From contig OZ024751.1 in the NCBI GenBank assembly GCA_964016885.1, forward strand, positions 51,212,001 through 51,276,000: a stretch of DNA of 64,000 bases, read 5' to 3'. The notes under the pieces were generated by a model that saw nothing but the letters and a program-made list of their open reading frames with translations, was not told the DNA's origin and did not search any database. Positions 788-61,658 of the stretch are shown one piece after another (positions within the stretch are counted from its first letter, which is position 1; every line of letters starts with the position of its first letter). The translations under genes and the position numbers were made by a program. The DNA comes from Eledone cirrhosa (taxonomy: Eukaryota).

Positions 788-2679
788 TATATATATATAT
801 ATATATAATCTGGGTATTACTCGAAGTTGTAGCCACAATATAGCTGGTACTAATCGAATTGTTTGAGGCAACCACAAAGAACTCAATGGAGCAGGAAGTT
901 AATACATTATCGTCCAGAGTAAACACAAAAGTTAAAAAAGTGTGACAACAAGAAAACCGACTGAAGGCAGTGGCAATACTTATACCACAATATATATATA
1001 TATACTATAGTTGGATGTAGTATAAATTATGTCATGCGCATATAATATGGCATAATTATGACATTCACATAGTATACTTTAGGAGACACATATAGTACAG
1101 AATAAGTTAAGACTATATTTATGGTATAGTATGATATAAGTTATGATATTGGCTGCTATTAAAAAAAATTGCAATTTGGTGGTAGAGTCACATATTGAAG
1201 TGATTGTTTTTTTTAATTTGGCTGCTCATCACCTCTACAACAAAAAGAATGACAGTATTGACAACAACAACTGCAAGAATATAAACAAGGAAGAACCTTC
1301 TTCACATCCCAACACCAGAAAAAGAGACTTTACCAGAAACAATAATATCAAAACCCAAAACAACAAAATACCTAAGAACTACAACATTAGCAGAAACAAC
1401 AACTGCACCAATGACAACAACACCATCAATCATATATATCTGTTCTACTAAACCAAGAAAATCTAAATTTTTTTTTTTTTTATTCTTACAACAGAGCCAT
1501 AATGTTTCAGCTTAGTATTTAGTAAGCTTTATCAGAAAAAAAACAAAAACTTTTCCTCTGATAAAACTTAGTGAATACACATACTTTGCTCTTTGCTGAA
1601 ACATTGTAGCTATGTTGTAAGAATATAAATAAATCTTTTTATATAAAATTCTGGTGTTTTTTTTAAATATCTTTTATTTCATTAATTAGAATGAAATTGT
1701 GATCACCTTTATTTCAGGCTGTGGAAGAGAAAGAAGAATATAAAGAAGTAGAAAAGAAGATTGACAGCAGCAGCAACAGCAGCAACAGGAGTTGCAGGAG
1801 GAGTAACAGCATAAGGTAACATCAACAACAGCAGCAGCAGGAGTTGTTACAGCAACAGTAATATGAACACCAGCAACAACAGGAAGGAAGAAAAGAAGAA
1901 AAAAGAGATAAAAATGAGTGAGTGTGTGAGAGAGAGACGGGAGAGAAAAATGGGGTAGAGGAGGGGAGGGAGAGAATTTGCAAAGGAGGAGCATTGGAAA
2001 ATATCATATAAGTAGTGGATAATTCGTGATAATTAATGTGAAGAAGAAGAAGAAGAAGAAGGAGAGATTGAGTGAAAACTGATATTTAGTATTGATTTTT
2101 GCCCCTTCACATTTTAACAAACACATATACACACACACATGCGTGCACATGTTTGGGTAAACATCATCGTGCTTGTGTATATGTTGCTCTCTATCACTAT
2201 CTCTCCATATATATTTATATATACACCATCATTTTATGTCTGTTCATGCTTGCATGGATTGGACAAACCATTCCAAACCAAGTCAATACTTTATCAGAGT
2301 CACCATCATCCTAAAAGGCCCAAGTCTTCTTCAAACACATTCCTGCTTTAGCATGGTTTCCATGACTGGTTGTTTTTCCTAATGCTAACCACTGTTCAGA
2401 GTGCACAAGATACATTTTATCATGCCACTACTCCATGTAAGTATATGTGCACGTGTGTTTGTGTATGGTGTTGTGTTTGTCAGAAAGCATTGTTTAAAAA
2501 AAAACCCCCAAAAACTCATGATAAGCACAAAACCTCACATGGTTTGTAAGTTTAGTATTGCTTTAATGGGAGAAAATGACTTGGTGCTACACATATACTC
2601 TCTCTGGCACACACACATACACACACACACACATATATATATATATGTGCATATATATATATGTGCATATATATATATA

Positions 2680-3015
2680 CAATGATATTAAATAAATGGA
2701 AACTATATTTATAAAACCATATTTATTCAATTATATATATTTCAAGGGTACCAACACTTTGGTATGCTCTCATCAGATAAAATACAAAATTTGTTTTATG
2801 AATATTGACATAACCAGGAAGAAGATCTTAAAGGTTCAAGTTTTTCCTGGAAAACTTCAACCGTTAAGATCTTCTTCCTGGTTATGTCAATATTCATAAA
2901 ACAAACTTTGTATTTTATCTGATGAGAGCATACCAAAGTTTTGGTACCCTTGAAATATATATAATAGAATAAATATGGTTTTATAAATATAGTTCCCATT
3001 TATTTAATATCATTA
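2680..3015. mobile_element. PLE pLTR fold-back palindrome (about 168-bp arms) with an HHR on each arm
   Basis: Axis near 2848; arms about 93% identical by eye; same sequence ends the PLE at 9270-9400. Confidence 0.85.
2911..2971 (+). ncRNA. Minimal type I hammerhead motif (mirror copy 2724-2784 on minus)
   Basis: TATTTTAT-CTGATGA-helix II (GAGCATACC..GGTACCCTT)-GAAA-TATATA-TA-ATAGAATA. Confidence 0.7.
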
Positions 3016-3391
3016 TAAAGTCGAGTCTGCTTAAGAGTATACTCTCGGGAATGGAAAATAGTATGCTCTTAACCGGACTATACTCCTATTCGGACTAAGT
3101 AAAAATATTCCATAGTATTATTATTTTGAGTCTTACAATGATTAAAAATCGCTTTGTTATCGTTTAAAATGCATTTATAAGTAAAAAAAATGAAAGTTAC
3201 ACCAAAAAATTCAACAAGAATTATTGCAAATTATTGCAATATTTCAACATATTGGTATGCAATTTGTATTTCCTAAAAATAGTCCAAAATGCTTTTTTGC
3301 ACTCGATTGCTTGCAATTTTTTTTTCAATCAATTCCTCAATCTCAGACAGAGTATAATTTTCAAAATTTTCAAACGATTGCATCATATAGG

Positions 3392-7520: not shown

Positions 7521-9487
7521 TACAATAAGTGGAAACTATATTTATAAAACCATATTTATTTTATTATATATATTTCAATCTTTAACAGACATACAATAAA
7601 ACTATCTTACTCTACTACTATGAACATAGCACAAAATATAAATAGAATCAATAATAGAAATTTACACCATAACCAAAATAGCAGTAATATCTCTAGCAAT
7701 ATCCAACATAATAGTACAGTTCCAAATAACATCAACTCTGCTAAATGTAACTGTAGAATTAAATCAAACTGTCCTTTAAAAAATAAGTGCTTAGATAAGG
7801 ACGTGTTCTATAAATGCACAGTCAAAACCAGTGATAATAATATTTAACTATGTAGGTTCAACTTCTACAGACTTTAAAAGTCGTTGGAATAATCACAAAT
7901 GCTCTTTCCGAAAACTTGATAAAAAAATCGTCAACTTCTCTATCAAACCTGATATGGAATTTAAAATCCAAAAATATGGACTATTCTTTAACTTGGGGAA
8001 ATAATTTCAAAAGCATCTGCCTCCCAAAACACAGCTTTATCTAGATTTTGCAAATTGTGTGTTGAGGAAATTTTTTTCATACTTAAATGTAAGAACTATT
8101 AATGTACGGACGAATTTATTTAGTTCTTGTAAACATCGCCTAAACTCAACGTTTAGAACTATATACTAATTATAATTACACTTATAATATTTCTACTTAT
8201 TTCCATAACAATCTTATCCACTCTGTTTTAATATATTGTTATATCTAAATCATATCTATAATATTTGCTATAATTTCACTTCTTAAAATTTCTTAAAATA
8301 TATACATATATGATCCTAACTTTTACATTTTTATTTTAACTTTAATTTTAATATTTTTTAAGTTTTTTAATTCTTTATTTTTTATTGTTTATTTCTTAAA
8401 CTTTTCATATATTTTAAAAATTACTTATTTTTTTAAAATTTACTTATCTCTTATAAATTGTTTTAAAAAATTTTCCCGAATTTTTAATATTTTTTAATAA
8501 AATTTTTTAATGTCTTTTATTAGATTTATAACCACTAATTCAGGCTAAATATATCTTTCAACATTTATATCTTTAACATTTAAACTTATTTTGACAAAAT
8601 AGTCTCGTACTAACGAATAAATAAACAAAACTGGAGTTTTTTTCCGTATCTTTCCAATTTAAAATATATAAATATAAATATTCTTATTAACTCAGTTAAC
8701 TTAATTACTTACATTAAATATAAACCAATATCCCTCATAACTCATTAAAACAATTATCTATAACATGATCTATCCATTTATCTATCTATTTATCTATTTA
8801 TTTTTCTATTTATTTTTCTATCTATCTATTTTTCTATCTATTTATTTTTCCATATATTTTTCTATCTAATTTTATATATATATTTATTTTTCTATATATA
8901 TCTATTTATTTTTCTATCTACTTATAACAGTAAATATTATATTAGAAAAGAATTTTAACAACTAAATAATCGTAAATATACGTACCATTAGTAGATATAT
9001 ACTTAAAAGTTATTCCCCCATATTAACGTTACATGAGTTCTATTCATCCTCTTGTTAATTTATTCTCTCTATCTCTCTCGTAATATTAATATTTTTTCTC
9101 TCTCTCTTTCTTCTCTATCTTTCTCCAGTGTCATTTAAATAAACGGTTGTTTTTCAATTATTTACATATTCATTTGCATATTCACACATAAGTTTGAATA
9201 ATCCCTAATATATTTCCACTATCCAATGAATTTCCAACCTATAAGGTATGAATTTCATGGGTACGTCTCTATTTATAAAACAAACTTTGTATTTTATCTG
9301 ATGAAAGCGTACCAATGTTGTCTTGGTTGCCCTTGAAATATAAATAAGAAAATAAATATGGTTTTATAAATATAGTTTCCATTTATTTAATATCATTGAA
9401 TATTTACTCCAGTAACTTGTTGAGTGCTCTAAATCAGTTATAAACATTTATGTTTGTCGGACTTCCAACAAATTAAATACAACTTCT
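7521..9487 (+). mobile_element. 5'-truncated PLE: inverted pLTR piece (7521-7578), decayed GIY-YIG coding region (about 7620-8160), 3' pLTR with HHR (9290-9354)
   Basis: KCNCRIKSNCPLKNKC..FYKC, then after a frameshift YVGSTSTDFKSRWNNH; CTGATGA at 9298 and GAAA at 9335; flanked by TA tracts. Confidence 0.85.
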
Positions 9488-22645: not shown

Positions 22646-22690
<45 letters not shown>

Positions 22691-22695
<5 letters not shown>

Positions 22696-23631
22696 CAAAT
22701 AACGAAACGAAATTAAATTTCGTTTCGTTTGTAACTCACTTTTGTATGACTGACGCTTAAACAATTAAGTTAAAAATGTACATCCACATATGTATACTGA
22801 AATACTAGTATGCATATGAATACACACACGTATACATATGTAGATGTACCGATTTTTTCACTGGTCACTTTACTGTGAGTGACCAGCTATTCTGTATGTA
22901 AACACACAGACAAACCGGTTTTTAGAGTCATACTGGTTTTTGAGGAAACACCTTTCCTCTATTCTCCAGAAAGCCAGACAAGGAATATTGAACTAGTTTC
23001 GTTGTTGTTACAACTCATCAGCAATATTTACCTATCTTCCGGCCTTTCTAGAGAATCGTAAAAGCACATAGGTAAATATTGCTGATGAGTTGTAACAACT
23101 GTGTGTATTCATATGCATACTAGTATTTCAGTATACATATGTGGATGTACATTTTTAACTTAATTGTTTAAGCGTCAGTCATACAAAAGTGAGTTACAAA
23201 CGAAACGAAATTTAATTTCGTTTCGTTATTTGTTTTTATCGTCTCCGTTGAACCGGTACGTACTCACGCTCTATGCAAATTAGTCTGCCCACTACTAATT
23301 TTCATAGAAAAAGCATATAACGATATGTGCTTTTACGATTCTCTAGAAAGGCCGGAAGATAGGTAAATATTGCTGATGAGTTGTAACAACAACGAAACTA
23401 GTTCAATATTCCTTGTCTGGCTTTCTGGAGAATAGAGGAAAGGTGTTTCCTCAAAAACCAGTATGACTCTAAAAACCGGTTTGTCTGTGTGTTTACATAC
23501 AGAATAGCTGGTCACTCACAGTAAAGTGACCAGTGAAAAAATCGGTACATCTACATATGTATACGTGTGTGTATTCATATGCATACTAGTATTTCAGTAT
23601 ACATATGTGGATGTACATTTTTAACTTAATT

Positions 23632-23636
<5 letters not shown>
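22691..23636 (+). mobile_element. Retrozyme-like 466-bp HHR unit: inverted copy (22691-23068) plus about 1.15 direct units, in (TA)n
   Basis: GTATTCATATGC recurs at 23105 and 23571 (period 466); homologous to the 48427-49918 array; non-coding. Confidence 0.85.
23366..23410 (+). ncRNA. Minimal type I hammerhead (mirror copy 22984-23028 on minus)
   Basis: AATATTG-CTGATGA-GTTGT(AACA)ACAAC-GAAA-CTAG-TT-CAATATT. Confidence 0.9.
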
Positions 23637-23688
<52 letters not shown>

Positions 23689-23950
23689 TGCATGTATATA
23701 TATATGTATATATAAATATGTATATGTATGTATATATATATATATATATACATATATAGAAAGATTTGAATGGATACAGTTTAGTTGAAAGGAATTTATT
23801 GACACGTGTTTCTATAACAGTTACGTAACCTAAAACAGCTATCTACAAACTTTTAGTTATGCAGACATTCAATATTTCAATGTTATTGTTTACTGTCATT
23901 TCATCAGAATAATATTACTGAGGACCTATTTAGTTTTTATAGAGAATATA

Positions 23951-25126
23951 GGACTAACTATAACATATGAATACAACCTTAAAGTAGTTAACTTCCTGGA
24001 TGTCACACTCAATTTAAACTCTGGTTTGATTAAACCGTTTCATAAATTGAATGAAAATCTCAAATACGTAAATGTTGGGTCTAACCACCCCATCTCTATA
24101 ATTAAATCTATCCCTAAAAATATTTCCCTTAGAATCTCGGGTCTATCTTCTAACATACAAGTATTTAAGGAACACGCCGAGTACTACGATAACGCCCTTA
24201 GTAAAGCAGGCTACCTCAACAAAATAGAGTACATAGATGGGAACAATCAAAACACCCAAAATAAATCCCACATAGGTAGATATAATAACACAACACCAAA
24301 CCACACTTACTACCATAGTATGCACACCAGTAAACCAACAAACAAAACTAATAGAAAGCGATGCAAAGAGTACTTATGGTATAACCCCGAATACAATAGC
24401 TCCATTAGTACAAATTTACCAGTACTCTTCTTTAAAATAATTAAAAGACATTTTCCCACATCACACAAATACCACAAAATCCTAAACCCTACCACTATAA
24501 GACTGTCATACTCTACAGCGTTAAACCTTGAACAACACATAAAAAAGATCAATACTAGAAGGTTAAACGAAAACACTAAGAACTTAAGTACAAAGAACCC
24601 CCAAAAAACAGTAGACAATACACTACAGAACATAAATAAACCACACCTAAGTTCGTCCGCAATACTACTCCAGAGAAAACCCAACGTACACAACTGTAAC
24701 TGCACCTATCTTGACAACTGCCCCCTCGGCAATAACTGCCTGGAAAAAAATATTATTTATAAGTGTACCATTAAATCCGGAGGCAACGAGTGGTATTACG
24801 TGGGATCAACGGCAACATCGTTTAAATCTCGATTGTATAGGCATTCTTACTCAATAAAACACCAGAGCCAAAGAAATGTAACAACTTTAGCAGAGAAAGC
24901 TTGGACGCTCAGGGATAGCAATCAAAAGTTTACCCTAAAATGGGAAAAATTAGCTAAAACCCAAAGCTTTTCCAGGAGCCAAAATTTCTGCAAATTGTGT
25001 AATCTTGAGATTTATTACATAATCACACACAAGAAGAAACTGCTGAATAACAGAATTGAACGAACATTATTCTGCCGTCACAGAACTAAAACCCTTTTTT
25101 CCCACTACAAGCCGAATATTACATAA
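23951..25126 (+). CDS. PLE RT C-terminus, linker and GIY-YIG endonuclease (5'-truncated, still open)
   Basis: VNFLDVTL, SNHP, WYNP, CNC..CPL..C, IIYKC..YYVGST..R..H, CKLC. Confidence 0.9.
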   Translation, partial: GLTITYEYNLKVVNFLDVTLNLNSGLIKPFHKLNENLKYVNVGSNHPISIIKSIPKNISLRISGLSSNIQVFKEHAEYYDNALSKAGYLNKIEYIDGNNQNTQNKSHIGRYNNTTPNHTYYHSMHTSKPTNKTNRKRCKEYLWYNPEYNSSISTNLPVLFFKIIKRHFPTSHKYHKILNPTTIRLSYSTALNLEQHIKKINTRRLNENTKNLSTKNPQKTVDNTLQNINKPHLSSSAILLQRKPNVHNCNCTYLDNCPLGNNCLEKNIIYKCTIKSGGNEWYYVGSTATSFKSRLYRHSYSIKHQSQRNVTTLAEKAWTLRDSNQKFTLKWEKLAKTQSFSRSQNFCKLCNLEIYYIITHKKKLLNNRIERTLFCRHRTKTLFSHYKPNIT

Positions 25127-25399
25127 AAGAGGGACATCCCCCAACTATATAAACCTTAATCTAGTTAGAAAAATATAAAAACAATCTCTTTTCAACATAT
25201 ATTAATAACCTTAAATTACCATACTAATAATGAAAAGATATGCTGATGAGAATAGGTACAAATATGCGATAATGAATGTGTCTAAAAACGTCCATAAGTA
25301 TGTATATATATATGTGAAAATGTATATAAATAAGTAAATATATATATATATGTTTGATGTGTATAGTTAGATGTAAGTGTATTCATGTATTAAAGTGCT

Positions 25400-25448
<49 letters not shown>

Positions 25449-26084
25449 GTATGTGTATATATATATATATATGTATATATATATGTATATATATGTATAT
25501 GTATATATGTATATATATATGTGTATGTATGTATGTGTATATGGATGTGTATGTATGTGTATGTGTGTACACATGGACTAGAGTATGTATGTATATATGT
25601 GTGTGTCTATACGTGTGTATATATAAAGATAAGTTGAGTATGAAAATGTATACACATGAGCGCGTATGTATGTACATGAATACATGTGTGTATATATATG
25701 TGTATGCATGTGTATATATATGTAAGTATGAATATGTGAATTGTGAGTATATGTATTTTGTAGAGGTGTGCAAATATATTTGTGTGTGAATGCGTGGGTG
25801 AAAGAATACGTACACTTGAAAGAAAAATTTAAGTCTGAATGTTAAGTGCAAACACAAAACCAACCACGCATATCTTTACTATCTCTAATCCTTCTATAGA
25901 TTTAGAAAAATAACCAATAATATATTCTATAAAAAATGTCAAAACAACAGATGGGAATCTAATTAATCACTGCCACCAAGAATTCTCACTGCTATCGAAA
26001 AACCACTCCTTCAACTATTCTTCTAACAACTTCACCCCTTCCTCCTAATATTCTCTATAAAAACTAAATAGGTCCTCAGTAATA

Positions 26085-26201
26085 TTATTCTGATGAAATG
26101 ACAGTAAACAATAACATTGAAATATTGAATGTCTGCATAACTAAAAGTTTGTAGATAGCTGTTTTAGGTTACGTAACTGTTATAGAAACACGTGTCAATA
26201 A
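26085..26201 (+). ncRNA. Hammerhead motif with about 70-nt loop 2 (mirror copy 23796-23912)
   Basis: TTATT-CTGATGA-aATGACAGT...ACTGTTATa-GAAA-CACGTG-TC-AATAA. Confidence 0.65.
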
Positions 26202-26349
26202 ATTCCTTTCAACTAAACTGTATCCATTCAAATCTTTCTATTTTTCTCCGGATTACTTTTGGAACTACAACTGGAACCGTCGAGCAAACTCTACGTGAGC
26301 TGATAATCTACTGTGTGTAATATTAATATTACAACACAACGGAAAAAAC

Positions 26350-26837
<488 letters not shown>

Positions 26838-38859: not shown

Positions 38860-42723
<3,864 letters not shown>

Positions 42724-42739
42724 GAAAAAGCATTAAAAG

Positions 42740-43316
42740 TGGACAATTTCACCAACACAACATACGCCAGAACACGTGCCAACACAAACCTTACCATGAA
42801 TCAAAGAAGAACTACGGTAATAACTCTTCGCTTTTTCTACAAAAACACCCTATCGCACACAACATGAACAAAAAGCACAAACACGATAGATATTCCTTTG
42901 ACCAGACCATGAGAAGTAGTAAAACCAGGAGATCATTCTCAAGATCTCAACAGAGACTACCAACAAGGAATGTGGAAACAAAATGTAGAATAACCAGATC
43001 ACTCTCAAGATCTCAACAGAGATTGCCCACAAGAAACTGGGCGAAAAAACGATCTAAACCTGAAAGCAAACCTAGGTCATTTCCCCAGATTGTTAAAAAT
43101 AATGCTAACAGGAAAAATAATATACATAATACCAAAAATAGGACAAAATACATAACGAAACCAAATATAATATCACGACCAAAAGTTCATCAAGCGAACA
43201 CCAACAGGAATATAAATCCTGAACAGAGAAAAATCCATTTTTTAACGTCAGGACAACAAAAACCGGAAAAAGAAAAACTCCAGGAGGAAACATACCCAAA
43301 ACAACTGTACACGTAG
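42740..43316 (+). CDS. PLE upstream ORF1, 5'-truncated, basic and Arg/Ser/Asn-rich
   Basis: Open in both arms; repeated RSxSRSQQRLPTRN motif; overlaps the RT frame. Confidence 0.6.
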
Positions 43317-45550
43317 ATCCTAAAATAATTAATTTATCTAAAAGAGATCTTGACAATGATGAAATGCAAATTCTGTCAAAAAGACTGAAATTCACACCGA
43401 CTCCAACAGTCAACCACCAAGAACTGAAGGAGGATACCCAAGAATTCTGTCGAAAATTACGTCTTGTAGAATTCTTCGCTGATAAAAGTAATGAGAGTGA
43501 TGAATCACTAGTAAAGAATATATCAAATTTCAGTGCGCCAAAAGGAAGAAATATCTATCTGGACCAATACATTGACATCCTGTCTAAATTTCCTCTTAGA
43601 CGTAATACTAATGTTAGGCCAAACATTAACAAATCAGAAATGTCTGCACTTAAACGTATACAAAATGATAAAACAATAATAATTAAACAAGCAGATAAAG
43701 GGGGTGCAGTTGTTATAATGGATACTGAATACTACAAGGATTTGGTTGAGGAACAACTGAAAGACACAACATTCTATCATGAAATACCGTCAAATATAGA
43801 CCACAACATCATGAAGAAGATCAACAACCTGGCTTCAAAATACCACAACTCACTTACTGATAAGGAAAGAGACTACATCACCAATTTTGAGCCAAATCCC
43901 AGCAACCTGTATGGCCTACCGAAAGTTCATAAGTCAAAAGAAATACAACTGGCAGTAAGAGAACAAAACAGTGAGTACATTAAATTACTACACCCAAAAG
44001 ACTTAAAACTTAGACCTATTATAGCTGGTCCAACATGCCCCACCCACCGTCTAAGCAATTTTGTTGACATTATTTTGAAACCACTATGTATTCACATACC
44101 CAGTTTCATCCGGGATGATATCGACTTCCTGTCCCATCTTCCCAAAACCACGGAAACGAATTCACTTCTACTTAGTTTTGATGTGGTAAGCCTTTACACA
44201 AAAATTATACATGATTTAGGAATAAAGGCGGTTAAATACTGAGTGGAAAAACATAGAGAAGTGATTCCCATCAGATTCACAGCGCCATTTATATTAGACG
44301 CAATTAAACTTATTCTGGAAAACAACACTTTCTTCTTCAATGGAAAGAATTACATCCAAATTAGAGGCACAGCGATGGGAACGAAGTTTGCTCTCGTTTA
44401 CGCGAACTCTGTAATGGAATACTTAGAACAACAACTCTACCAAGAAATAGAGGAAAAATATAGTACTGACATTAGAAAGTACATTGAAAAATCTTGGAAG
44501 AGATACCTTGACGACTGTTTCATCAACTGGACAGAATCTCTATATACTCTGGATGAGTTCAATATCCTCCTGAATAACCTACACCTATCTCTCCAATTCA
44601 CAAAAGAGATGAGTAGGACCAAATTACCATTCCTAGATATAATGATAATCAAAAACGACACCACCATTACCACGGATGTATATTATAAACACACAGACAC
44701 CCATCAATATCTGAATTTTAAGTCGTGCCATCCACCTCATACAAAACGCAACATCCCATACTGCCTAGCCAGAAGAATTTGTACCATTGTAGAAGATACG
44801 AATACCAGGTACAAACGCCTAACAGAACTAAGAGAATTTTTGCTCAAACAAAAATACCCATCTCTACTTATAGAAAATGGCATACAGCGGGCTATAAAAA
44901 TACCTATACAACAACTTAGGACAACCCAAGGAAGAAGAAACCAAGAACTGGTCATACCATTTATAATGACACACAACCCATGTCACCAGAATATCTTCAA
45001 CACTGCCAAAGCAAACCTACCGATCATTGCTCATAGTAATGAATTAAAAGGCTTAATCACAGATCGATCTTTGACTCTTAGTAAAAGACAGCCAAAAAAT
45101 GTGAAGCAATTACTAACAAAAGCAAAGTTTGACCTTAACAACAAAGACCAATCATTCACTGTATCTAAATGCAATGATAGTCGATGCGGCACATGTCAAT
45201 CCATACACGCCGGTCAATATATGAAAACAAAAACTGGAAAAATATTCCCAAATGCAAATATGAACTGCAAAAGCAGAAATCTAATTTACTGCATTAAATG
45301 CCCGAATTGTGAAGAACTATATGTCGGTCAAACTGGAAATGCACTATCGGAACGTGCACGGGTACACCGTCAGCAAATCAGAGACCCAAATGTCCGTCAG
45401 ATACCCCTAAGTAACTATCTAACAACATGTGGTCAGGGAATATTTATAATATTCCCATTCTACAAATTACACAGCCCAAGTGAAATCAAGAGAAAAATCA
45501 AAGAAAAGAATTTTATTGATAAATTCAAACCCAAGCTAAATGAACAATAA
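43223..45550 (+). pseudogene. PLE reverse transcriptase plus GIY-YIG endonuclease, one nonsense codon (TGA 44240-44242)
   Basis: INLS..ILSK.LKFTPTP, KQADKGGAVV, LYGLPKVHK, LRPII, SFDVVSLYT, GTAMG, RYLDD, FLD, KCNDSRCGTC, LIYCIKCPNCEELYVGQT. Confidence 0.95.
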
Positions 45551-45612
45551 TAACGCTTAGGGGTATTACTTCTACTATGACTATGACTACGACCATGTCG
45601 ACTACGACCACT

Positions 45613-45672
<60 letters not shown>

Positions 45673-45977
45673 AATAATAATAACAAAAGTGATGTTGATG
45701 GTGATGATTAGTAGAAAATGCTATTTTCATCATTTCTAAAAATAGCAAAACAATTGATGCTTTGGATAGGATTAATTATTGGTCGTTAGACATGCTCAAC
45801 CAGCCGTGACGCTTAAACCAATCAGCTTTAGTAATTCAGTGAAACTACACACCGATTGGTCGAAATACAGTTTGGAAGATTTAGCATTCTGGAGCCACTT
45901 TTCACTGTATATAAGGTACAAAATTTACCCATCTCATTACAGTTGAAAATTGCAAACTTGACTGTCACCACATATTA

Positions 45978-46016
45978 TGAACCTGAAGATTGCGAAAGCA
46001 TGAAAGTACTTGTTAA
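45978..46016 (+). ncRNA. Minimal hammerhead motif in the PLE 3' end (mirror copy 39509-39547)
   Basis: AAC-CTGAAGA-tTGC(GAAA)GCAt-GAAA-GTAC-TT-GTT. Confidence 0.7.
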
Positions 46017-46178
46017 ATTAACACTTAGAATTTAATATTCTATCATACTATTTCATTATAATACCATTATATATTTTAAAGGATTGTAAATAAAACGAGT
46101 AAATCAGACAAAGTTGGAATTCCTCTTATTAATATAATCTTCTATACACAATCATACACACCCGTGTATATTTATCTA

Positions 46179-47956
<1,778 letters not shown>

Positions 47957-48015
<59 letters not shown>

Positions 48016-48048
48016 ATATATATATATACATATATACATATACATAAA

Positions 48049-48140
<92 letters not shown>

Positions 48141-48155
48141 CATATATATATATAC

Positions 48156-48224
<69 letters not shown>

Positions 48225-48286
48225 CATATATATATAGACATATATATATATACATATATATATATATACATATATATACATACATA

Positions 48287-48318
<32 letters not shown>

Positions 48319-48377
48319 CATATATATATATACATATATATATATACATATATATATATATACATATATATATATAC

Positions 48378-48427
<50 letters not shown>
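47957..48427. repeat. (TA)n/(CATA)n tract
   Basis: Direct inspection. Confidence 0.95.
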
Positions 48428-48431
<4 letters not shown>

Positions 48432-49918
48432 AATTAAGTTAAAGTGTGCATCTACATATGTATACGGAAGTATTAGTATGCATATAAATACACACATGTA
48501 TACATATGTACATGTACTCAGCTTTTCACTAGACACTTTACAGTGAGTGTCAGCTAGTCTGTATGTAACCACACAGGCGGACCGGGTTTTAGAGTCATAC
48601 GAGTTTTCAAGGAAACACATTTCCTCTATTCTCCAGAGGGCCAGACAGGAATATTGGACTAGTTTCGATGTTATTACATCTCATCAGCAATATTTACCCA
48701 TCTTCCGGCTTCTCTGGAGAATTGTAAAAGCACATATCGTTATATGCTTTTTCTATGAAAATTAGTAGTGGGTAGACTAATTTGCATAGAACGTGAGTCA
48801 TTGTACGCACCGGTTCAGCGGAAACGATAAAAACAAATAACGAAACGAAATTAAATTTCGTTTCGCTTCTAACTCACTTTTGTATGACTGACGCTTAAAC
48901 AATTAAGTTAAAGTGTACATCTACATATGTATACGGAAGTATTAGTATGCATATAAATACACACATGTATACATATGTACATGTACTCAGCTTTTCACTA
49001 GAAACTTGACAGTGAGTGTCAGCTAGTCTGTATGTAACCACACAGGCGGACCGGGTTTTAGAGTCATACGAGTTTTCAAGGAAACACATTTCCTCTATTC
49101 TCCAGAGGGCCAGACAGGAATATTGGACTAGTTTCGATGTTATTACATCTCATCAGCAATATTTACCCATCTTCCGGCTTCTCTGGAGAATTGTAAAAGC
49201 ACATATCGTTATATGCTTTTTCTATGAAAATTAGTAGTGGGTAGACTAATTTGCATAGAACGTGAGTCATTGTACGCACCGGTTCAGCGGAAACGATAAA
49301 AACAAATAACGAAACGAAATTAAATTTCGTTTCGCTTCTAACTCACTTTTGTATGACTGACGCTTAAACAATTAAGTTAAAGTGTACATCTACATATGTA
49401 TACGGAAGTATTAGTATGCATATAAATACACACATGTATACATATGTACATGTACTCAGCTTTTCACTAGACACTTGACAGTGAGTGTCAGCTAGTCTGT
49501 ATGTAACCACACAGGCGGACCGGGTTTTAGAGTCATACGAGTTTTCAAGGAAACACATTTCCTCTATTCTCCAGAGGGCCAGACAGGAATATTGGACTAG
49601 TTTCGATGTTATTACATCTCATCAGCAATATTTACCCATCTTCCGGCTTCTCTGGAGAATTGTAAAAGCACATATCGTTATATGCTTTTTCTATGATAAT
49701 TAGTAGTGGGTAGACCAATTTGCATAGAACGTGAGTCATTGTACGCACCGGTTCAGCGGAAACGATAAAAACAAATAACGAAACGAAATTAAATTTCGTT
49801 TCGCTTCTAACTCACTTTTGTATGACTGACGCTTAAGTTTTACAATTCTCCAGAGAAGCCGGAAGATGGGTAAATATTGCTGATGAGATGTAATAACATC
49901 GAAACTAGTCCAATATTC
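48427..49918 (-). mobile_element. Retrozyme-like array: 3.0 x 469-bp units plus an 82-bp inverted piece
   Basis: Unit starts at 48427, 48896 and 49365; only a few substitutions between units; one HHR per unit. Confidence 0.9.
48650..48694 (-). ncRNA. Minimal type I hammerhead with GUC site (also 49119-49163 and 49588-49632 on minus; 49873-49917 on plus)
   Basis: AATATTG-CTGATGA-GATGT(AATA)ACATC-GAAA-CTAG-TC-CAATATT. Confidence 0.92.
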
Positions 49919-50336
49919 TCTTCGTTAATTTTCAAATTCTTTTAATTTATATATTATCTTCCAACGGTTTTTCAACCTCTCTATGTAAAACAATATATTT
50001 TTCTCAGTTATAAAAGCTATCTCTGTCTCTCTATCACCCATCTCTCCTCCTATCTCATCCTTCCTCATTATACTCCCCCCTCCACTTTTTACTCTCATCT
50101 CCTCCTCTTTTTCATCCTTTCCAACCTCCCCCGCCCCCTCAATTTTTTCCCAATATCACATCAATCTAAAACTACTTTTCATATGTTGATTTAAAACTGC
50201 ACTATTCACAAGTGTTCTTTTACCTTCATATCATGTCTCCCTATTTTATCTGACGAAAACGCAAATGTTATTGCATGATGATATTGCATGATGTTATTGC
50301 ATATATATATATATATAAATATATATATATATGTAT

Positions 50337-50377
<41 letters not shown>

Positions 50378-50378
50378 C

Positions 50379-50480
<102 letters not shown>

Positions 50481-50488
50481 GTATATAC

Positions 50489-50547
<59 letters not shown>

Positions 50548-50564
50548 TATTTTTTTTTTTCTAT

Positions 50565-53790: not shown

Positions 53791-54433
53791 ATATATAGCT
53801 TTCACCGTATTTTTGACTAAAGGAATTTTAGCTTGATAACGGGGTTTAGAACCCTCAGATAAATGGAAAAAGATGAGTATTGACGTACATGGGAGTCGAA
53901 CCCACATCTGTGGTTATCGCGACCACTGTGCTACCATTACACCAACACATCACCCATCTCTCTCCATTCAAATTAGAAACTACATTCTTAGCGAGTTTAA
54001 ATGGCAAGTAAGTATGTTTTGAAACAGTGAGCGAGTTTGAAATTAGAAAATATATAGCTTTCACCGTATTTTTGACTAAAGGAATTTTAGCTTGATAACG
54101 GGGTTAAACCCCGTTATCAAGCTAAAACCCTCAGATAAATAGAAAAAGATGAGTATTGACGTACATGGGAGTCGAACCCACTTAAACTCGCTAAGAATGT
54201 AGTTTCTAATTTGAATGGAAAGAGATGGGTGATGTGTTGGTGTAATGGTAGCACAGTGGTCGCGATAACCACAGATGTGGGTTCGACTCCCATGTATGTC
54301 AATACTCATCTTTTTCCATTTATCTGAGGGTTCTAAACCCCGTTATCAAGCTAAAATTCCTTTAGTCAAAAATACGGTGAAAGCTATATATTTTCTAATT
54401 TCAAACTCGCTCACTGTTTCAAAACATACTTAC
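53791..54433. mobile_element. 259-bp tRNA-headed unit in tandem plus inverted arrangement, between short TA tracts
   Basis: GCTTTCACC at 53798 and 54057; 54182-54433 is the inverted copy. Confidence 0.8.
54231..54301 (+). pseudogene. tRNA-like cloverleaf (mirror copy 53881-53951)
   Basis: GATGTGT-TG-GTGT AATGGTA GCAC-A-GTGGT CGCGATA ACCAC-AGAT-GTGGG TTCGACT CCCAT-GTATGTC-A; no U33, several G-U pairs in the acceptor stem. Confidence 0.7.
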
Positions 54434-57640: not shown

Positions 57641-57859
57641 GTAACGTACAAATATTTCTTCACTCTTCTCACCATTTTAATTCCCTAGTCCATTCATCAA
57701 TCTGTATCATTTCTCCCTGAATCCAATCTTTGCTTTTCTATTCGATAATTCTAGCGTATTTTTCAAAACAAATCTTGTATTATTGTTTTATGCTTGTTAA
57801 ATTATGCCCAAAATACGGGGATCTTATTTAAACCTTAACCTTCTTGCTAACTACCCAAT

Positions 57860-60800
57860 ATCCCTCCCACAAGCACCACCATTATTACGTGGGCCAATCA
57901 TAAGTCAGCGGCCTATGCTATCGCTTACCTGGTTGCCTTTCGATATGATGGATGGACTACGGAATTCTGGAGAGTTTGAAAAGAAAAAATCTGGACACTC
58001 AGTGACAATGCCAAAGATAAAGACAAATTCACCTCATGGACGAGAATGCAAGGACTCCTCCTCTTTGTTTCGGCCGTGGATGGCTAACATAACCCCCCCA
58101 CCCCCCACCCCCCCTGCGCCCCACCGCTCCCACCCTCCAAACGCAATCCAAAACTTCAGAGTTGGTACCATGAATGTAGGCACCTTAAAGGGTCGCTCTA
58201 ACGAGGTTGTAGAAATGCTTGAAAGTAAGGAGATTGATGTTTGTTGTATTCAAGAGACCAGGTGGGTGGGTGGGGGGGGGGGTCTGCTAGATTCATCATG
58301 GGTAAAGAACGATGCTATAAGCTTTTCTGGGTGGGAAATGACAATGGGCTGGGTGGAGTAGGAATCATGGTAGCAGAAAAGTGGGCAGATAAGATAATAG
58401 ACGTAAATAGGGTGAATGACAGAATAATTAAAATAAGACTTTTCCTCAATAGAACTACTGTGACAGTAATATCTGTGTACGCACCCCAATCCGGACTGCC
58501 CGGCACTATAAAAGACAGATTCTATGAGACACTGATGCTCACTACCTCCCAAATAACCGACGGTGACTATATAATTATTGCTGGCGACCTAAATGGTCAC
58601 GTTGGACAACATTGTGACGGCTATGACAGAATCCATGGAGGCTATGGGTTTGGTACTAGAAATGAGGAAGGCTCCAGAATCCTGGAATTCTGTGATGCAA
58701 ATATCCTAACCCTCTGTAACACTAACTTCAAAAAACGAGACAATCACTTGATCACCTATAGATCGGGGGAACACACAAGCCAGGTAGATTATATCCTTAC
58801 CAGGAGACGTGACAGAGTGTCTGTTGTAAACATTAAATCCCTCCCCCATGAAGAATGCACCTCTCAACATAGACTCATAATTAGCGACCTCATAGTCAGG
58901 ACGAGACGTATTCGACAACAGAAGAGGACTATTGTCAGGAGAAAAATATGGAAGTTAAAGGACCCCACAGCCAGTAATAAATTTAAAAGCATATTACTTG
59001 ATGCTTTTGATAGTAAGGAAGAGCAATTAGAGTCGTACAATATAGAGGAACAGTGGGAATTCCTGAAAGCTAACCTGCTGAAGGCGACAGATGAAACCTG
59101 TGGCTGGAGCAGACCTATAGGCAGGAGGAGAGTAACTTGGTGGTGGAACAGTAAGGTGGAGAGGTCAATCAAGGCCAAAAAGCAGGCTTGGATAGCATGG
59201 TGGGATGGGGGAAGTAGAGAAGACTATCAAGTGGCCAGGAGGGAAGCTAGGAGACAAGTGTACTTCGCAAGAAGGGAAGCAGAGGAAAGAAAGTTCAAGC
59301 ATGTTCTTCAACGCGAGGACCAAAAACGTGAGGTGTTCAGGATTGCTAGGCAATATGTCAAGGAAAACAGTGATATTGTCGGGGAGAAGTGTGTCCTTAA
59401 TGATGATGGTGTACTTGCCATCACTGACGCTGATAAGAAGGTAGCTTGGAAGTGTCACTACGAAAGGCTACTAAATGAGGAGAATAATTGGGAGAAAGAC
59501 AGTCTCCCCCACATCGACCCAATAGAGGGACCAGCAGTGCAAGTTGAAGGTAGTATAATAAGTAAGGCGATCAAAGACATGAAGACGGGCATGGCGGCCG
59601 GGCCTTCGGAAATAGTTGCCGAAACGCTGAAAGCATCTGGAACAGTGGGACACACTATGGACACCCGGATAGTAAACCAAGTCATACAGAATGGGTCGTT
59701 CCGAAGGACTGGCGCAGCAGCATCATCATTAACTGCTACAAGGGTAAAGGTGATGCCATAGATAGGGGAAACTATAGAGGCATTAAATTAATTGACCAGG
59801 TCATGAAGGTCACAGAAAAAGTAATAGCACAACTAATCAGAGAGCAAATTGATCTAAATGAAATGCAGTTCGGGTTTGTGTCAGGTAAAAGTACAACAGA
59901 CGCTCTTTTCATTGTACGACAACTACAGGAGAAGTACCTAGCTAAAAGATAACCCCTATACTTAGCTTTTGTTGACTTGGAGAAAGCCTTTGACAGAGTA
60001 CCCCGCTCAATTATCTGGTGAGCCCTTAGAAAACTAGGTGTTGATGAATGGCTTGTGAGAGCTATACAAGCCATGTATAAAGAAACAGTCATCAAGGTTA
60101 GAATTAACAACGAATATAGTGAAGAGTTTAGCGTAAAAGTTGGTGTTCATCAGGGCTCTGTCCTTAGCCCCTACTATTTATTATTGCCCTTCAGGCTATA
60201 ACAGAGGAGTTCAAGACCGGCTGCCCATGGGAACTCCTATATGCAGATGATCTAACGCTCATAGCTGAATCAATGGCTGAACTAGAGAAGAAATTCCAAA
60301 CATGGAAGCATGGCCTAGAATCAAAAGGCCTTAAAGTTAACTTGTCTAAGACTAAAGTTCTAGTTTGTAGGAAGGAAAATAGGGCACCGGTCCCATCTGG
60401 GAAATGGCCATGCTCAGTGTGTAGGAAAGGAGTAGGCAGAAACTCCATTTTATGTCCCAAATGCAAAGTATGGGTGCATAAAAGATGTAGTGGGATCACA
60501 GGTAAGCTAACTAAGAATATAGATTTTATATGTGGCCGGTGTTCTGGTGCAATAAGTAGCAGCAAGTGCCCACAGAATACTAACTCATTCCATTGCACAG
60601 ATGGTTCTATAGAAATAGTGGACAGCTTCCGTTACCTGGGTGACAAAATCAGCAGTGGGGCAGGGTGCTCTGAAAGTACAGTAGCTAGAGTCAGAACGGG
60701 ATGGAAAAAGTTCAGAGAGCTTATACCACTATTGGCCGCTAAAGGGTTCTCTCTAAAAATGAAAGGCAGGCTGTATGATGCCTGCATACGAACAGCAATG

Positions 60801-61658
60801 TTACATGGCAGTGAGACCTGGGCATTGTGTGCAGAGGATATACGCAGACTGGAGAGAAACGAAGCTTGCATGCTCCGCTGGATGTGTAATAGTAATATAC
60901 GTGAATGGCAAAGCATAAACGAACTAAGGGAGAAATTAGGAATAAGAGGGATCAGATGTTGTTTACTACGTTGGTACGGTCACGTGATGCGCATGAAAGA
61001 CGACAGCTGTATAAAAAAGTGCAGGGCGATAAAAATAGACTGTAGCCACGGAGTAGGCAGACCCAGAAACACCTGGGACGACTTGATAAATTCCGACCTC
61101 ACACACTTACACCTCTCCAAGACAATGTCACTGGACTGAGAACTTTGGCGCTACACAGTTATACAGAAGACCCGCCTTGCCTAAGTACAAAGCGAAACCT
61201 ACAGTCAGTAGGCACCTCTAACGAAATACACCCCCGCCCCACTACCCTCACCCCACCCACACCACCCCTTAAATGTGAAGTTATGTTGGTACCACAACAT
61301 CCAGTCCACGCTGTAATGTGGCTGTGTAGGTAACACGGTAAAAACCTCCCAGTCCACACTGAAAACGTGGTTGGTGTTAGGAAGGGCATCTAGCCGTAGA
61401 AAACCCGCCAGACGTGTAGGTGTCACGACAAAAAAACACACAGTCCACGCTGTAATGTGGCCGTGTAGGTAACACGGTAAAAACCTCCCAGTCCACACTG
61501 AAAATGTGGTTGGTGTTAGGAAGGGCATCCAGCCGTAGAAAACCCGCCAGACAGTCCTATACGAGCAAGACAACCAATCTTGCCTCAGGTGGGAAAACTC
61601 TCGTCCAATCCCATGTAAGCGTGGAAGATGGACGTTAAACGATGATGATGATGATGAT
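57860..61658 (+). mobile_element. Near-full-length RTE-clade LINE, inactivated by frameshifts and stops
   Basis: APE motifs (TMNVGTL, CIQETRW, SVYAPQ, GDLNGH, VDYIL, SQH); RT motifs (NYRGI, QFGF, FVDLEKAFD, GVHQGSVLSP, YADDL); Cys/His finger; GRPRNTW; (GAT)n tail; 5' boundary approximate. Confidence 0.95.

Follow-up and report, generated by a model that had tools for sequence, protein, structure and literature searches.

The window, that is, the whole 64,000-nucleotide stretch of Eledone cirrhosa DNA analysed here (C11:51.21-51.28 Mb of a 3.0 Gb genome), contains a tandem array of three units on the minus strand with a period of 469 bp and starts at 48427, 48896 and 49365. Units 1 and 2 occupy 48427..48895 and 48896..49364, and the third (49365..49836) includes 3 nt of a fourth unit up to the 5'-truncation point, with the 469-nt periodicity extending to 49836, 3 nt beyond 3.0 units. 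The units are 99.1-99.4% identical and differ pairwise at 3, 4 and 3 positions, in agreement with the three near-identical units described by the first-pass annotation. The first base of unit 1 corresponds to the family's proximal start site (unit position 1) and lies in a (TA)n target tract (47955..48428) at the 3' (RNA-sense) end of the array. This left arm is canonical, with a proximal start in (TA)n and a length of 1,410 nt.

On the other side, an unmatched single G at 49837 separates the unit 3 array from a short inverted arm on the plus strand (49838..49918), which runs from unit 303 to 223, matches unit positions 223-303 at 100% and ends 8 nt beyond the predicted cut site of its hammerhead. 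The inversion proposed earlier is therefore real, but its matched length is 81 nt, the figure of 82 having counted the unmatched G. Across the three units and this cap, 6/1,473 positions (0.4%) depart from the commonest letters. One variant, 113G, occurs in the window only in units 2 and 3 and, of 35 loci compared, at no other; given this distribution, the present unit count may differ from that at insertion.

The cap shares a 3-nt TTC overlap with a 385-bp remnant (49916..50300, plus strand) of the 3' UTR/pLTR of a coding Hydra-type Penelope-like element (PLE), here called element B; the remnant breaks off in stem II of the hammerhead. Element B has its own hammerhead and a CxCX5C linker, the latter being a feature of the Hydra clade (PMC8557442). 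A further (TA)n tract (50301..50550) bounds the right side of the composite. Of the TA borders initially proposed, the left junction does lie in (TA)n, whereas the right side meets the PLE remnant, and TA begins only at 50301. The locus has no tail end, and its right end, at unit 223, is non-canonical.

Other mobile elements lie in the same window. A second insertion of the array's family (22689..23636), from a subfamily 86-88% identical, is canonical, with a left tail end and a right proximal end, both in (TA)n. At the inner junction of this older copy lie 32 additional nt of hammerhead sequence (23068-23099), which suggests that a short template jump preceded the joining of the arms. Two coding PLEs are present: a 5'-truncated Hydra-type element on the plus strand (23756..26352), with an inverted 199-bp pLTR and a tail of ~113 nt at one end only, and a fold-back Neptune/Nematis-type element of ~7 kb (39392..46166), with reverse transcriptase (RT) and GIY-YIG domains and a tail likewise at one end only. 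Both are fold-backs in (TA)n. A 340-bp fold-back at 2678-3017, with hammerhead-like cores at 2776 (minus) and 2919 (plus) and a related copy at 9298 (within 9280-9400), is probably another PLE-type remnant. An inverted tRNA-like pair forming a long fold-back at 53881-54301 (Rfam 42-44 bits) is possibly an inverted tRNA-derived SINE. A LINE at 57801-61139 encodes AP endonuclease and RT, and its RT frame extends to include a PHD finger (Pfam E 6e-7); several of the loci retrieved contain close relatives. Rfam miRNA matches across the window were rejected as AT-repeat or fold-back artefacts, all under their gathering scores.

The hammerhead and the predicted fold of the unit RNA

Each unit carries a hammerhead core (CTGATGA..GAAA..GTC) on the minus strand, at 48687, 49156 and 49625, and a fourth core lies on the plus strand of the inverted arm (C3 at 49880), so that the earlier placement of one hammerhead per unit and one in the inverted piece is borne out. 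The Rfam model HH9 matches all four (E 2.3e-4 to 4.6e-4, 32-33 bits), under its gathering score of 52. The three complete motifs, at 48628..48722, 49097..49191 and 49566..49660, are of type I with an extended helix I, and cleavage is predicted at 48657/48656 (GUC/CAAUAUU), 49126/49125 and 49595/49594, respectively. The fourth, with a predicted cut at 49910/49911, is without the 3' strand of distal helix I. In the predicted fold the core is intact; proximal helix I has 7 bp and continues into two further helices, helix II has 5 bp and a 4-nt loop, and helix III, formed by the palindrome ACUAGU, is only 1-2 bp long. Among 21 aligned copies from several subfamilies, 98.9% of the hammerhead pairing cells are standard pairs, compared with 36-47% in slid controls. 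Two-sided (covarying) change is found at two of the hammerhead pairs, representing two subfamily-level events among related copies, not many.

The first-pass annotation had proposed dimeric cleavage through the ACTAGT palindrome. The palindrome is invariant in 21/21 aligned unit copies and fits the published dimer model. In the energy model, closing helix III within a monomer costs 5.9 kcal/mol, while the ACUAGU self-duplex yields -4.8. For the hammerhead of this family, cleavage is predicted to occur in dimers that pair through ACUAGU. Published work already describes such cleavage of dimers by way of a palindromic loop 3 (PMC4209133), and the axolotl HHR_Amex1, with a minimal helix III and a palindromic loop, cleaves in this way (PMC7229834); among Xenopus dimers, cleavage in vitro is reported for only 1/9 tested (bioRxiv 10.64898/2026.07.22.740005).

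The monomer running from cleavage site to cleavage site is predicted to fold far more stably than shuffled sequences (z = -11, or z = -8 with the AT-palindrome block removed), and the circular 469-nt form has a predicted MFE of -151.6 kcal/mol with 68% of its bases paired. GC content is 0.367 in 49001-50000. No protein-coding ORF was found in the 469-bp unit: read across unit junctions, the longest stop-free frame has 84 codons, 64 of them from an ATG. A sequence-archive look-up with 36 sampled words listed no RNA run; six runs of unknown kind, from four studies, hold 36-78% of the words, and one of them may be the source of the assembly.

A dispersed family with two fixed outer ends

The array belongs to a non-coding family that is large, young and dispersed, with ~2,000 scattered insertions. 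An exact 45-nt hammerhead word has 901 matches in the genome and the TA-plus-tail junction 1,970, with none for either control; the proximal junction pattern of the young subfamily has 561 matches, partly redundant. Identity to the window unit varies among subfamilies between 81% and 100%. A sister family, also non-coding and hammerhead-bearing, has a unit of ~430 bp that is 62-70% identical, keeps the ACTAGT loop and a tail hairpin, and shows 2,986 TA-plus-tail junctions; its loci include L096:3572-5000, L109:3070-3750, L153 and L229-L258. With a hammerhead in each unit, no ORF and wide dispersal, the earlier assignment to non-coding tandem hammerhead repeats of the retrozyme type holds, and on sequence grounds the array appears to represent a new family of non-LTR retrozymes, an already known kind of element. 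The literature covered, with subscription papers mostly outside scope, yielded no account of this family or of a tail and fold-back footprint in a retrozyme; Repbase may already list the family.

Insertion structure was mapped at 76 loci, a sample of the ~2,000 in which the beginning of contig C1 and the best-scoring matches predominate: 36 were unselected for their ends (34 from hammerhead or BLAST matches and the two in the window) and 40 were selected for a tail end. Left out were L092 (a duplicate of L091), L081 (ends not reached), and L124 and L146, whose second end coincides with the limit of the retrieved sequence. L091 and L092, at C1:55.97 and 55.99 Mb, have identical breakpoints 17.7 kb apart and are a segmental or assembly duplicate.

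The outer ends of these insertions fall at two fixed sites, a proximal one at unit 1-6 and a distal one at unit 401, which lie 63-69 nt apart along the RNA with a hairpin between them. In the window array the corresponding 69-nt tail segment (unit 401-469) is found on the minus strand at 48827..48895, 49296-49364 and 49765-49833. The hairpin inside it, CGAAACGAAATT-A-AATTTCGTTTCG, lies at 48841..48865, 49310-49334 and 49779-49803, which confirms the strong hairpin per unit noticed earlier. Two arms are present in 29/36 of the insertions unselected for ends; 25 of these 29 have one proximal and one distal end, the other four have one non-canonical end (unit 223 at the window locus, and units 106, 43 and 352), and none has two ends alike. 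If ends were independent and equally frequent, 25/25 unlike pairs would have a probability of 3e-8. The insertions selected for a tail end follow the same rule, with a proximal partner in 20/22 resolved two-armed cases, a non-canonical one in two, and no second tail. Altogether, 45/51 resolved two-armed insertions pair a proximal with a distal end and none has two alike. The sister family (30 loci, 1.5 kb each) gives 14/17 unlike two-armed insertions, one of them doubtful, and again none alike. The outer ends lie in (TA)n, where a target-site duplication is not readable.

Conservation is concentrated in the same region. In 27 diverged loci, mismatch to the window unit is 3.4% in the tail and 0.7% in the hairpin, against 8% in the hammerhead core and 12-18% elsewhere, although most of these loci were chosen by an exact distal 26-nt match, which inflates conservation at the tail end and in the first few hairpin bases, not in the rest.

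This footprint has a close counterpart in the literature on PLEs. Their insertions often carry a tail of 30-40 bp at one end only (PMC8557442). In vitro work places the tail between two start sites that the RT uses within the RNA and shows cleavage and extension of both target strands; the same study predicts a dimeric protein and calls the one-tail pattern unique to PLEs (PMC11167929). To judge from sequence, the one-sided tail of the present family, set between two sites, is this published PLE tail. The two fixed start sites around the hairpin, absent from the first-pass annotation, are the strongest evidence for PLE mobilisation. That annotation had relied instead on a fold-back cap and a TA target in common with neighbouring PLEs. 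Fold-back structure and TA target do occur in both PLEs, but this particular cap is atypical: rather than a typical end of the family, it is one of six non-canonical ends among 51 two-armed insertions.

Neither the unit number nor the inner breakpoints follow such a rule. Arm lengths range from <0.1 unit to ~50 units, and the inner breakpoints of 127 arms are not distinguishable from a uniform distribution over the unit (P=0.17), the histogram being approximate in that BLAST over-extended a few of them, including those in L111, L113 and L116, into the AT-palindrome block. Only 4/87 arms of at least 400 nt end within 5 nt of a whole unit number, with 2.0 expected (P=0.15). The integer of 3.0 units to which meaning had been attached does not stand out in this distribution, and exactly three units are a matter of chance. 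The longest arm, of ~50 units (23 kb), belongs to a fold-back that keeps both canonical ends (G000:C1:127664426-127688966, covering L109, L110 and the matches between); its repeated partial variants suggest later expansion.

Candidate partners and competing origins

At least two intact coding PLE families are present in the genome; both were traced by way of the neighbouring elements in the window, and they are candidate partners. The Hydra-type family (RWK, DKT, CxCX5C) has 11 intact frames of 785 codons that are 99.3-100% identical (region of loci L191-L198), and the young subfamily of the Neptune/Nematis type (GxKF, DKG, CX4CxxC) has nine of 775 codons at 99.8-100% (L280-L284). The Hydra-clade family of the element at 23756-26352 is very young and abundant; PMC8557442 reports only a few Hydra families outside cnidarians. 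In the Neptune/Nematis-type 3' UTR, the sole CTGA.GA motif pairs poorly. Compared with the two intact families, the unit showed no nucleotide homology, only short matches, the best with E 0.002 on the opposite strand. The tails of these PLEs and that of the unit have in common only a hairpin shortly before the distal end, which is too generic to pick a partner.

The absence of homology bears on the reading that takes the unit simply for the pLTR or 3' UTR of an autonomous PLE and the arrays for its 5'-truncated copies. PLE pLTRs likewise have a type I hammerhead, a tail, a fold-back and a TA target, and in Xenopus 24/57 retrozyme families match annotated transposable elements, nearly all of them PLEs, at their ends (bioRxiv 10.64898/2026.07.22.740005). 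Arms of the present family, however, cross many whole head-to-tail units, up to ~50, and no ORF intervenes. The 76 insertions were searched by tblastn with the PLE proteins of the window and read by eye, and the unit never followed a PLE ORF end in sense; at these loci it is not the pLTR of a coding PLE, the reading that the first-pass annotation had named as a refutation. The nearest cases are L089, where a 41-nt stub abuts the middle of a broken PLE frame, and one among 60 further loci, mostly of the sister family, with a Hydra-type fragment at most 1.5 kb upstream that ends mid-ORF. Rarer ACTAGT-loop motifs were followed as possible pointers to a parent PLE; none of the 14 loci chosen for them had an adjoining ORF. 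A locus at C1:95.62 Mb, considered as an ORF-flanking pair with two exact hammerheads 3.3 kb apart, proved to be a diverged array of at least 20 units. Among ~2,000 insertions, a rare coding master could have escaped a reading of 76, but a pLTR origin of this kind is improbable.

Local amplification is a different proposition, according to which the repeat is a satellite or minisatellite derived from one pLTR and multiplied by unequal exchange, with hammerhead and hairpin as passengers. Such a model is discussed in the same preprint, and it finds some echo in the long arrays (L082, L109/110 and L095), which repeat variants in some units only, as 113G recurs in just two units of the window; because of such variants, some local exchange probably occurs. 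That process accounts for the growth of long arrays, not for their spread. Dispersed insertions that each have their own fixed outer ends and scattered inner breakpoints, rare variants common to both arms in 8/28 young two-armed loci, and constraint on tail and hammerhead make amplification as the origin of the family quite improbable. Mobilisation by an ordinary LINE with twin priming, for instance by one of the nearby CR1-like elements, is more improbable again. The genome does contain abundant LINEs with AP endonuclease and RT, and PMC7229834 names LINEs as possible partners; the ends of the present family nonetheless lie at two internal sites, have neither a poly(A) nor a simple-repeat 3' tail belonging to the element, and face outward into the target on both arms, and the one-tail pattern is described as unique to PLEs (PMC11167929). 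Twin priming of the L1 type on one linear RNA predicts that the inner breakpoint of one arm equals the outer end of the other. No such match is seen here.

The right flank of the window array raises a narrower alternative, limited to this locus, namely that the RT switched template from the RNA of Hydra-type element B to retrozyme RNA within one event, in which case B would be the partner. Stub and remnant agree in RNA sense, share the TTC overlap and terminate in (TA)n; the window contains none of the B sequence that would lie further upstream, and L089 is similarly arranged with a coding PLE fragment, although that fragment contains stops. The divergence of the remnant (5/370 substitutions, 1.35%) falls within the 0.5-3.5% of 19 other B copies and exceeds the 0.4% (6/1,473) of the array (P=0.05), the closest of 40 scored B copies is only 96% identical to it, and it stops inside B's hammerhead, away from B's usual ends. 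Such a chimera is accordingly rather unlikely, and the sequence comparison suggests that the B remnant is probably older than the array and was present first. The right arm would then be an 81-nt non-canonical stub, produced by off-site priming or by later deletion and joined through TTC microhomology to the older PLE remnant.

A proposed route of mobilisation and its significance

The array is best read, with good though not full confidence, as one recent insertion of a protein-free non-LTR retrozyme, likely copied into (TA)n by the RT-endonuclease of an autonomous PLE. The retrozyme likely spreads by means of this borrowed copying enzyme because its insertion ends match those of Penelope-type elements. 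The template would be an RNA longer than one unit, either a read-through multimer or a 469-nt circle formed by hammerhead cleavage and ligation, and the tail hairpin may be the site at which it is bound. The endonuclease would nick both strands of AT-rich DNA, and each DNA end would prime reverse transcription inside the RNA, one at each fixed site. The two cDNAs would stop at random and then be joined head to head. At the window locus, the left arm would have begun at the proximal site and run for 1,410 nt.

Since all arms read through the cleavage sites, the template RNA appears to have been either uncut or re-ligated. Its source may be read from sequence variants. At 8/28 young two-armed loci, a rare variant is present in all the segments that cover its position, on both arms alike, and haplotype markers mostly agree between arms, which argues that both arms came from the same source. 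Counted per locus, 50 variants are fixed in all covering segments, 25 occur in some and 143 in one. Variants common to both arms would fit a single circle, or several RNAs from one homogeneous source array, and the 25 partial ones point to later exchange or to linear multimer templates. A more specific possibility, put forward only tentatively, is that a dimeric PLE RT holds one retrozyme circle at the hairpin, primes from both target strands on either side of it and rolls around the circle to produce multi-unit arms. This would explain both the 45/45 canonical unlike pairs and the rare variants fixed in both arms. If true, the family would offer direct genomic evidence for rolling-circle target-primed reverse transcription, and the 469-nt RNA would be a minimal substrate for the PLE tail mechanism.

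The family resembles the metazoan non-LTR retrozymes of coral, mussel and axolotl/newt (satellite 2) described in PMC7229834, which consist of non-coding head-to-tail units of a few hundred bp with GC below 50%, a type I hammerhead per unit and a strongly folded monomer; its minimal helix III with a palindromic loop resembles that of axolotl HHR_Amex1. Its 469-bp unit exceeds the 150-450 bp given there and falls within the 51-972 bp of bioRxiv 10.64898/2026.07.22.740005. Mobilisation of retrozymes by PLEs was proposed in the former source and argued from phylogeny in the latter; the main text of PMC7229834 contains no fold-back arms, (TA)n targeting or pair of fixed start sites ('inverted' and 'microsatellite' have no matches in it). 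The preprint likewise treats retrozymes as PLE-dependent, on the basis of co-occurrence with PLEs, namely vertebrate co-distribution, and of pLTR homology, and its main text has no match to 'tail'. The argument for the present family comes instead from its insertion footprint, and no coding pLTR of the two intact families compared proved homologous to the unit.

Likeness to PLEs that encode an endonuclease is equally close. Hydra and Neptune/Nematis elements, and PAc Poseidon in vitro, combine 5'-truncated arms in tandem and inverted arrangement, a tail on one side only, two internal start sites with the hammerhead upstream of them, and AT-rich or (TA)n targets (PMC8557442, PMC11167929). Unlike them, the retrozyme has no RT or GIY-YIG frame, its tail measures 63-69 nt rather than 30-40, and the whole unit is the repeat. 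PLEs with an N-terminal endonuclease are described as without canonical hammerheads (PMC8557442), whereas the present family has one; insertion by PAc in vitro does not need hammerhead cleavage (PMC11167929). The non-autonomous Chlamys PLEs, such as MRC1, are also non-coding, multicopy in head-to-tail arrangement and PLE-dependent for their insertion, but they resemble an autonomous family at the 3' end (PMC8557442), a similarity to a partner that was not found here.

The retrozyme class, the dimer idea and the PLE link are thus already in print, and what this family adds is evidence and a test system. The case for how metazoan retrozymes move has so far drawn on co-occurrence and on homology to pLTRs. 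The non-coding family described here frequently shows the PLE-specific footprint of two start sites, a one-sided tail, a fold-back and a TA target; constraint is highest in the hairpin that the start sites flank, and the family appears to provide unusually clear genomic evidence for mobilisation by PLEs. The 469-nt RNA, its two predicted start sites, a candidate recognition hairpin and two candidate enzymes together make this mobilisation testable in an existing in vitro assay.
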